Of a DNA stretch of 64,000 bases, positions 1 through 2,306 are shown piece after piece; the stretch's first letter is position 1, and each line of letters begins with the position of its first letter. This DNA is from Rozella allomycis CSF55 (taxonomy: Eukaryota): contig KE560949.1 in assembly GCA_000442015.1 (NCBI GenBank), forward strand, positions 1 through 64,000. The letters are read 5' to 3'. The position numbers and the translations under genes are program-made. The notes under the pieces were generated by a model. That model did not search any database and was not told the origin of the DNA. It saw nothing but the letters and a program-made list of their open reading frames with translations.

Positions 1-2306
1 AATTTCTTTCAATTTCAATTCTATTTTCTTCTAATTGAATTGGATTTGTCAATTTATTAATTTCACTCTCCACATTCATTATTTCTTTATTAGTTTGATT
101 CAATTGGATTTCAAAATTTACCAATTTCTCTTTAATCAAATTCAATCTCTTTATCAAACTAATTCTATTATTCTTTTTATCAAAATATCCCCCTGTAATA
201 GATCCCCTCTTATCAACTCTATCCCCTTGTCTCGTTATTGTATTCACTTTATATTCTTTTGATATCAAATTAGCCATCTGGATATTCTCTGTCACCAATG
301 TATTTGAAAACACCTATTCCATCAAACCATCAATCTATTACATGTTCAAACGCTGCTTTATATTTTGGTTCAAATTTTATCGTTTCTATCAATGGAATCG
401 TATTCTCAACTCTAATCTTCTCTTCTTGCTTATTCATTCTATTCAATGGCATAAATGTCACCCTCCCAGTCTTACTCAACTCCAATATACTCGTAGCCAC
501 TTGATCCGTTTCAACAACAAGATAAAACAATGAATTCCCTGCAACTATATCAACCGCAATCTCATACTCTTCTTCTACCTTCATCAACGAAAACAATGGA
601 CCATGATAGCCTTTCCAATTCAACAATCATCCTTACCTTTAATATTCATCTTTTTCACAAGCTTTTCAATATTCATTATATTCTTATTCACCAACTGTCG
701 CTCCAATTTATCAATCTCTTCTTTCGCTGCTTTAATATTCGTCTCCAATTTAACTTGATTCTTCCACAATCCCTTTCTCTCATCCATCAATTCATCCCTC
801 CTCTTTTTCATCTCATTCAATCTATCCTCTTCACTCTCAAACCCCCTCTTCAATTTACTCTCATACTCTACATTCACCTCATTCAATCGCTTCATCTTTT
901 CCCTAATATTCTCAATCTGTTGCCCCAACTTTTCATCTTGCTCTTTATACTGCTCCACTGCCTCCATCACACTCTTCATCTGCTCCCTCAAATACTCATT
1001 CCTCTCTTCAACACTCTTAAATTGCTTCCCTCTATTCATCTTGCCCATGAATCCATCCCTCTCTACAACATCATTACTCAAACTCAACACCAGCTCATTC
1101 TCTGCTCTACTCTCCTCTTCAATCCTCCCTCTAATAACACTCATCTCTTCCTCCTTTTCCATCAACCTCTCATTCAATTCCTCCAATCTCCTTTCCATCC
1201 TCTCCCTTTCTCCCTCCTCAATCTCTTCTTCCATCAAATCCTTCAACATCATCTCATTACTCCCAATCTCTCTCATCATCTCATTCAAATCTTCTTCAAT
1301 CTGCTTCTTCTCCACTTGCACCATCCTCAACTTATCCCTCTTCACCTCCCGCTCCCCCTCAATCTCCTTTATCCTTTCCTCATTCACCCTAAACTCCTCC
1401 TCAATATCCCTAATCCTATCCCCATCTTCCTTTCTATAATTCTGCAGCTCATCCAGCACCCGCTGCATCTCCTGTATCTCCCGCAAACAACTCACATATT
1501 CCAAACTCTTCCTATCCCCCTCCAACTCATAATACTCTCGCAACTCCTTCTTCTCATCCTCAAGCTCCTCCAACCGCTCCTCAATATGCTTCATCAACTC
1601 TTCAATCTTCTTCCTCTTCCCCTCAGTCTCCTCAATAATCTTCAAACTCTCATTCCTATGCTCCTCATACACCCTTGTCCCAGCTACCTCCTCCAACACC
1701 CCCATCCTCTCCCGGTCACTCGCATTCGTCAGAAAAGTAATCTACATCTAAAAAGAATTAACCCATTTTACCCGCCCCTGTGGCACGATATAGTACGGAT
1801 TGCTCTTTGAAAACCCAGCACTCTGCAGCAGATTCATAACCTCGCTCCTAGTCACACTCTTCCTATCCAGCGAATAGTCATCCTTCTTCATCCCAACAGT
1901 GCGCCGCAAATACACACGGTCCTTGCACATCGGGAAACGCCCATCCTCATTGTTAAACACAATCTCCACATAGCCACTGCCAACGCCTCCCTCGTTCAAC
2001 AATGACGCACGCTCCTCCAAACTTATCTTGCTGCTAAACACATCGCCCAACACAAAGCGGATCGCGAAAAAGAAATTACTCTTGCCTGAACCGTTTCTGC
2101 CAACTGGGTTACTTTATATACTTGTTTTTACCTTTTATTATTGGTTTGTTGCTGCTTACCTAGGTTATAAAAGTTTCAGTGATTTACCTATAACATTTGT
2201 TTCGGGACTGAATGGATCCAGCGTTGTTTGGTCCCGGTAACTCTTGAAGCCTTGAATAGTCACCTGGTATTATATATCACCGTTCATGTACCGTTTCAAT
2301 AAACAT
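1..2306 (-). CDS. SMC3: Cohesin SMC3, 5' part; runs off the window start
   Basis: Spliced N-terminus [32 protein letters not shown] (Walker A); [28 protein letters not shown]; coiled coil; hinge [10 protein letters not shown]. Confidence 0.93.

Follow-up and report, generated by a model that had tools for sequence, protein, structure and literature searches.

An 84-nt complex intron built of three abutting 28-nt units in the SMC3 gene of Rozella allomycis, a candidate for stepwise removal by the spliceosome

The cohesin gene SMC3 of the parasitic fungus Rozella allomycis CSF55 lies at the start of a 64,000-nucleotide (nt) stretch of genomic DNA (positions 1 to 64,000 of contig KE560949.1, assembly GCA_000442015.1; the whole stretch is called the window here), and is interrupted immediately upstream of its Walker A region by an 84-nt intervening sequence that consists of three abutting 28-nt units. 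Read directly on the minus strand, the units occupy 2187-2160, 2159-2132 and 2131-2104; each starts with GTAA and ends with AG, and zero bases lie between them, the contacts being two AG|GT junctions within the intron (2160|2159 and 2132|2131). This arrangement suggests a complex intron composed of three autonomous, abutting U2-type mini-introns with zero-length exons, and its best reading is that the three mini-introns are probably removed one after another. The coordinates, unit sizes, GTAA donors and AG ends given in a preliminary description of this DNA proved exact to the base.

By the standards of the surrounding genes, each unit is an ordinary intron in donor, acceptor and length, 28 nt being the commonest length class. 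The first unit, M1 (2160-2187), has the donor GTAAAT and ends in CTAG; the second, M2 (2132-2159), has the donor GTAAGC and ends in AAAG; the third, M3 (2104-2131), has the donor GTAAAA and ends in CCAG, and both M1 and M3 carry TAACC at positions -8 to -4. Splice-signal scores of 3.12, 4.01 and 1.97 for M1, M2 and M3 correspond to the 59th, 69th and 39th percentiles of the 94 introns of 25-31 nt predicted in the window, and place the units in the top 1.5%, 0.6% and 3.8%, respectively, of 2224 GT..AG decoys of the same length range. Among the same 94 predicted introns, GTAAAT is the most frequent donor hexamer (14 occurrences), with GTAAAA used 8 times and GTAAGC twice. All three donors and all three AG ends are intact, and, unlike in a stwintron, no splice element of one unit is interrupted by another.

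The relatives of the gene and its reading frame both indicate that the mature mRNA probably lacks all 84 nt. A metagenome scan with SMC3 exon 3 as the query recovered 80 SMC3 loci (54-70% identity, none closely related to Rozella), whose sole use here was to establish that the site carries no interruption elsewhere. In every one of the 80, an unbroken frame of at least 14 codons spans the site, in the pattern N-[VI]-x-x directly followed by G-x-N-G-x-G-K-S, and the Rozella exon that precedes the stack has its homologous counterpart before Walker A in all of them. Because the site is uninterrupted in 80/80 relatives, the intron position appears to be lineage-specific and the 84 nt wholly noncoding. 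When the eight possible splice outcomes were scripted, full removal alone kept the frame, with 703 codons open to the window edge, and the seven forms that retain one, two or three units each met a stop at codon 37-48. The claim that all 84 nt must go and that partial removal breaks the frame is therefore upheld by seven of seven partial forms and by the relatives. Metatranscriptome contigs carrying the same species label gave 22 short matches to positions 1-20000, mostly less than 90% alike, and the organism is not in that sample.

Two screens that joined open reading frames (ORFs) without any length prior gave, across the 64 kb, a single peak at 26-29 nt above flat noise and no peak at 56 or 84 nt; 63 confident introns follow the consensus GTA[A>T,C].....[T/A]AG; a distinct branch motif did not emerge from this set. 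A dynamic-programming gene parser, built on codon log-odds together with weight matrices for the splice sites and a prior on intron length, called 101 introns, of which 94 fall within 25-31 nt. All but one of the 94 are 'required', meaning that their retention shifts the frame or brings in a stop; these 93 comprise one intron of 25 nt, 21 of 26, 24 of 27, 29 of 28, ten of 29, six of 30 and two of 31, at a density of about 2 per kb of coding sequence. The statement that 28 nt is the commonest length thus holds in the gene parse; the mode of a cruder first screen was 27 nt (22/63, vs 11/63 at 28 nt). In its form without zero-length exons the parser mis-modelled SMC3, and once stacks were permitted it chose 28+28+28 at SMC3 and no other stack. 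After inspection of its calls, neither a second credible intron longer than 31 nt nor a second in-gene stack was found within the window. With window introns of 25-31 nt and a mode of 27-28 nt, Rozella is among the shortest-intron eukaryotes. Introns of about 30 nt or a median of 29 bp are mentioned in passing for Rozella in the accessible text of two papers, and Rozella is absent from a review-style 2026 list of lineages whose introns fall below 30 nt.

A search of the whole window for GTA..AG chains with units of 24-31 nt returned one triple, the SMC3 stack. Dinucleotide shuffles produced 0.025 triples per shuffle with GTA donors (3/200 shuffles held at least one), and with GTAA donors a triple stack arose in 0/200. 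In a further simulation, 2,000,000 introns of 84 nt were given the same outer ends and interiors drawn from a first-order model of local introns, a conservative model, as the terminal GT and AG of those introns were included in it. Any partition into three units of 25-31 nt occurred in 642 of these, a partition that also had GTA donors in 115, and one in which no unit scored below the 10th percentile of real introns in 20. An ordinary long intron that happens to hold two well-placed AGGT could be imagined, given that AT-rich introns are rich in GTA and AG and that at least one AGGT was present in 377,301 of the 2,000,000 simulated introns. One unrelated abutting pair also exists, at 45037-45097 (plus strand, 31+30 nt); TCCTTCT is common to its two units, the surrounding DNA is AT-rich, intergenic and devoid of coding context, and the frequency of such pairs is at chance level (shuffle expectation 2.7 pairs). 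Against this stand the rarity of three-unit partitions in both the simulation and the shuffles, and the exact coincidence of the edges of the stack with the frame-restoring boundaries of a conserved gene. Chance is not a serious explanation for the stack, and almost no credit is given to it.

Some long introns of yeast are shortened by an internal helix that joins the outer splice sites. For the SMC3 intron such a structure is excluded, as the 84 nt fold worse than shuffled sequence: the minimum free energy is -3.7 kcal/mol (z +1.21), with 176/200 shuffles folding at least as well, and with 20-nt flanks added the z score is +1.85, with 197/200 shuffles folding at least as well. No helix bridging the outer splice sites was found in either form.

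Stepwise removal is the most natural prediction for a sequence of this kind in a region where 93 credible introns are 25-31 nt long and no other exceeds 31 nt. Because nearly all introns here are about 27 nt long, splice sites are expected to be paired across the intron, and an intron-definition spliceosome working on units of about 27 nt would pair each donor with the nearest competent 3' site. M1 would then be removed like any other intron, as the outer donor meets a normal 3' end 28 nt on, and the whole 84 nt would be excised by two or three successive reactions. By inspection, excision of M1, whose original context is TAG|GTAAAT, would set an exon end ...ATAG before GTAAGC, and subsequently before GTAAAA, such that each step would act as a ratchet that recreates a normal 5' splice site behind an exon end in ...TAG. 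A 5'-to-3' order would be likeliest if splicing is co-transcriptional. Any order is nonetheless possible because each unit is complete and independent of the others, and other orders, or the loss of two units at once (56 nt), would give the same final mRNA. Only the fully processed mRNA would encode SMC3, and every intermediate would carry an early stop.

The chief competitor of stepwise removal is a single 84-nt intron, in which the outer donor at 2187 would be joined with the last branch site and the AG at 2104 in one reaction, and the internal AG|GT would be rarely used evolutionary relics, such as an ancient tandem duplication of the unit might leave. This is the less likely of the two and still deserves real weight. 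Its final product would be identical, and the equal unit lengths and the shared TAACC hint at just such a duplication origin. Several further points weigh against stepwise removal. Rozella may be able to remove 84 nt in one step; in Microsporidia, its sister lineage, a 76-nt intron is spliced well, and better than introns about one third its length, and in Lipomyces starkeyi both modes coexist, a complex intron leaving in one step or in two, both according to the accessible parts of the published accounts. The branch site of each unit is not confirmable, the local branch-point motif being too degenerate; the intron catalogue is a home-made prediction with a length prior, not RNA-based, in which at least two errors were caught by eye; and with 64 kb as a small sample and the SMC3 stack as its sole instance, no general rule can be claimed. 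Removal in one step has difficulties of its own, however. M1 is fully typical, with the commonest donor hexamer and a score around the middle of the distribution, and skipping of its 3' site would be unusual under intron definition. Nowhere else in the window was a credible single-unit intron longer than 31 nt found, there is no helix to shorten the distance between the outer sites, and unused internal sites should decay, yet consensus-level signals persist in all three units.

The preliminary description had also proposed that partial products could regulate cohesin output. On a regulatory reading, incomplete removal would yield stop-containing SMC3 transcripts whose degradation tunes cohesin levels. 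Splicing-coupled decay is known in fungi (e.g. S. pombe prp10, as far as the accessible text goes), and the early stop in all seven partial forms would suit such a device. The property is not special to the stack, however, as retention of any of the 93 required introns also gives a stop or a frameshift, which leaves the proposal unsupported and quite improbable. An assembly or sequencing artefact, or a dead copy of the gene, is more improbable again. The window does contain 9 N and two introns that apparently end in TG, so that some base errors are possible, and the searches of public proteins turned up no Rozella SMC3 model that has these exons. On the other side, the three units are unrelated in sequence, hence no collapsed or expanded repeat is involved, and there is no N near the site; 703 codons are open once the gene is spliced, and the features of the SMC3 head, arm and hinge are intact.

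Two weakly supported routes can be considered for the origin of the stack: a 28-nt unit may have been duplicated in tandem and its copies then diverged, or new internal splice sites may have appeared in a longer intron. The latter, 'stwintronisation', has been proposed for fungal complex introns, through new internal splice sites or small duplications in an existing intron, according to the available text. The units have no recognisable overall kinship, and the earlier remark that they are not copies of one another is accurate: their interior identities are 18%, 41% and 32%, vs a background of 32 +/- 10% (mean of 32% in 406 other 28-nt intron pairs). An introner-like family is likewise unsupported, the best identity of a unit to other 28-nt introns being 50-55% within the 64-kb window. 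Two weak hints point to unit duplication. Three equal lengths have a probability of 0.06 for independent draws from the local length distribution, and M1 and M3 are alike at 5/6 of positions -8 to -3 through the shared TAACC, a level reached by 3.0% of random intron pairs; TAAC at the -8 position occurs in 1/93 other introns. A broader proposition is that the reduced Rozella spliceosome has a length ceiling as well as a floor (about 25-31 nt), so that longer introns would exist only as stacks, with lengths quantised across the genome (about 28, 56 and 84 nt), produced by tandem duplication of units and obligatorily removed by recursive splicing; this is regarded as unlikely.

The identity of the gene is secure: it is SMC3, the cohesin ATPase subunit. 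Exon 3 (1772-2103, minus strand, as are all the following parts of the gene) encodes the Walker A region and N-terminal ATPase head, opening with the last two bases of a valine codon and reading VGRNGSGKS...; it matches Pfam SMC_N over 1772-2101 (E 2.3e-19) and is 54-72% identical to the SMC3 of fungi and other eukaryotes, and its best named matches are all SMC3, SudA or Psm3 of fungi (66-72% identity). The gene parse and the translation place the start codon in exon 1 (2292-2306), which has 15 nt and encodes MFIET. It is followed by intron 1 (2264-2291), an ordinary 28-nt GTAC..AG intron in phase 0, the removal of which restores an N-terminus matching the relatives, and by exon 2 (2188-2263), which has 76 nt (25 codons and 1 base) and ends with ...ETNVI plus that 1 base, placing the stack in phase 1. 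Downstream of exon 3 are a 30-nt intron in phase 0 (1742-1771), exon 4 with the coiled-coil arm and a very purine-rich coding strand (637-1741), a 26-nt intron in phase 1 (611-636), exon 5 with the start of the hinge region (342-610), a 28-nt intron in phase 0 (314-341), and exon 6 (1-313), which continues past the window edge. The coiled-coil arm and hinge are visible in the spliced translation, and the C-terminal half of the protein lies beyond the window.

No Rozella protein was present among the exon 3 matches (proteins of 194-2000 aa), the best of which, at 72% identity, belongs to another organism, and a 373-codon SMC3 exon searched against proteins of 654-2000 aa gave no match at E <= 1e-40. 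SMC3 may thus be absent or mis-modelled in the public annotation, possibly since gene finders cannot place abutting introns; a gene finder that bars zero-length exons would mis-model this gene. The composition of the locus is also skewed: the GC skew is -0.68 over 1-2000, and the coiled-coil exon (620-1741, minus strand) is extremely purine-rich on its coding strand. A 437-codon open frame (497-1810, plus strand) lies opposite this exon and is almost certainly a by-product of composition, not a gene.

Several other parser calls were set aside on inspection. A 38-nt intron called in a GUF1/LepA-like gene would delete ISAK, which includes the GTPase SAK motif, and a 26-nt intron ending in TG fits better; a 110-nt call (22131-22240) is likewise better explained as a 26-nt intron ending in TG plus coding sequence that lengthens the downstream exon in frame by 29 codons. 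In NPC1, the 247-nt call leaves out evident C-terminal coding, which a 28-nt intron at 38553-38580 restores (by eye), and calls of 197, 212 and 291 nt bridge past the stop codon of an ORF into the neighbouring gene. A 27-nt call on the plus strand (16367-16393) is coding sequence of a Ded1/DDX3-like helicase, with conserved residues and no in-frame stop; dropping it removes an apparent 1-nt exon, the real 26-nt intron (16395-16420) lying one base downstream. Two further candidate stacks, 11870-11922 (26+27 nt) and 60722-60789 (26+42 nt), both on the minus strand, were not chosen by the gene parse.

These inspections yielded observations in their own right. The NPC1-like gene holds the 28-nt intron at 38553-38580 (plus strand), overlooked by the parser, and the 247 nt that the parser skipped encode C-terminal transmembrane sequence. 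Two probable 26-nt introns start with GTAA and end in AATTG, at 14318-14343 (plus strand) and 22215-22240 (minus strand). In the former, which belongs to the GUF1/LepA-like gene, the next AG is at 14355, and its use would cause the ISAK deletion; in the latter, the TG end alone keeps the 29-codon extension open in frame. Such GT..TG introns could be true non-canonical 3' sites or base errors, and a crude screen found no general excess of TG ends (7 vs 36 AG).

The remainder of the window has about 34% G+C, and its composition and gene content fit a compact fungal genome. A neighbouring GFAT exon (2923-3475, minus strand) matches a Rozella allomycis CSF55 protein at NCBI with 100% identity across 184 residues. 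Among the other genes are those for NPC1, a ZIP transporter, a PIF1-like helicase and a protein kinase that carries a receiver domain. In this kinase (4876-7866, plus strand) a long insert interrupts the catalytic domain, and the receiver domain, of the response-regulator type, comes after it, an arrangement that we take to resemble fungal Rim15. Rfam and tRNA scans of the window gave no matches.

Should stepwise removal be true, the SMC3 intron would be the smallest recursive-splicing substrate known, with two zero-length exons between minimal introns, the gene being an essential one and its host a fungus close to Microsporidia. Spliceosomes would then be able to assemble anew on a 5' splice site of their own making from 28 nt before, and the locus would provide a natural way to ask whether the spliceosomes of tiny-intron genomes gauge an upper length limit in addition to a lower one. 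It would also bear on the addition of introns, by duplication of units or by new internal sites; tandem duplication of the unit, if true, would be a simple way of gaining further introns at a single site, and one not described so far. If one-step excision alone takes place, the locus is a curiosity of intron history.

Recursive splicing has precedents of several kinds, which the accessible parts of the literature allow to be compared with the SMC3 stack. The view that it is found mainly in very long animal introns, expressed in the preliminary description, is outdated: the stwintron literature recognises 'abutting U2 introns excised by recursive splicing' as a class, and fungal cases of 336-375 nt are documented. 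In Drosophila (e.g. in Ubx), where recursive splicing through zero-nucleotide exons is documented genome-wide (10.1101/006163), and in the related recursive splicing of vertebrates, ratchet points resemble the SMC3 junctions in having AG|GT inside an intron; splicing of the upstream part recreates a 5' splice site and the intron is lost piece by piece, as predicted for SMC3. By contrast, those introns span tens of kilobases and their ratchet has a long polypyrimidine tract, while the SMC3 intron has 84 nt, pieces of minimal length and two consecutive junctions. Fungal examples are S. pombe SPNCRNA.445 and C. neoformans BOT1, both with a U2-type intron split by a zero-length exon, the former of 336 nt and the latter of 375 nt, in parts of 210 + 165 nt. 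Spliceosome profiling proved that their pieces are removed separately. They have two pieces of 165-210 nt in hosts whose introns are normally about 40-65 nt, against three of 28 nt in SMC3. The stwintrons of Pezizomycotina and Lipomyces are likewise fungal complex introns that need consecutive U2 reactions, but in these a donor, branch or acceptor element of the external intron is broken up by the internal one, which forces the order of removal, while the SMC3 units are complete and abut cleanly.

The other relevant comparison is with genomes of tiny introns, which share with Rozella a narrow, near-minimal range of lengths: about 25 nt in Paramecium, 15-16 nt in Stentor, 16-17 nt in mikrocytids and about 26-27 nt in myxobolid myxozoans and Dicyema, together with Microsporidia. 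In the accessible text of the literature searched, no report of stacked unit introns was found for any of these groups, nor was a description of stacked minimal introns found under recursive splicing, tiny introns or Rozella introns. Rozella belongs to the Rozellomycota, the sister group of Microsporidia, and the 'long' microsporidian introns of about 76 nt come nearest in dimension, being, like the SMC3 stack, rare, about three times the miniature length and located in a related reduced lineage. The portions available describe each of them as one intron, spliced with high efficiency and having a branch motif that is extended and conserved, and not as a stack, and it is by this description only that they are set apart from the SMC3 stack. 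What distinguishes the SMC3 intron is its scale and number, namely three units, each of minimal local length, in a tiny-intron genome.

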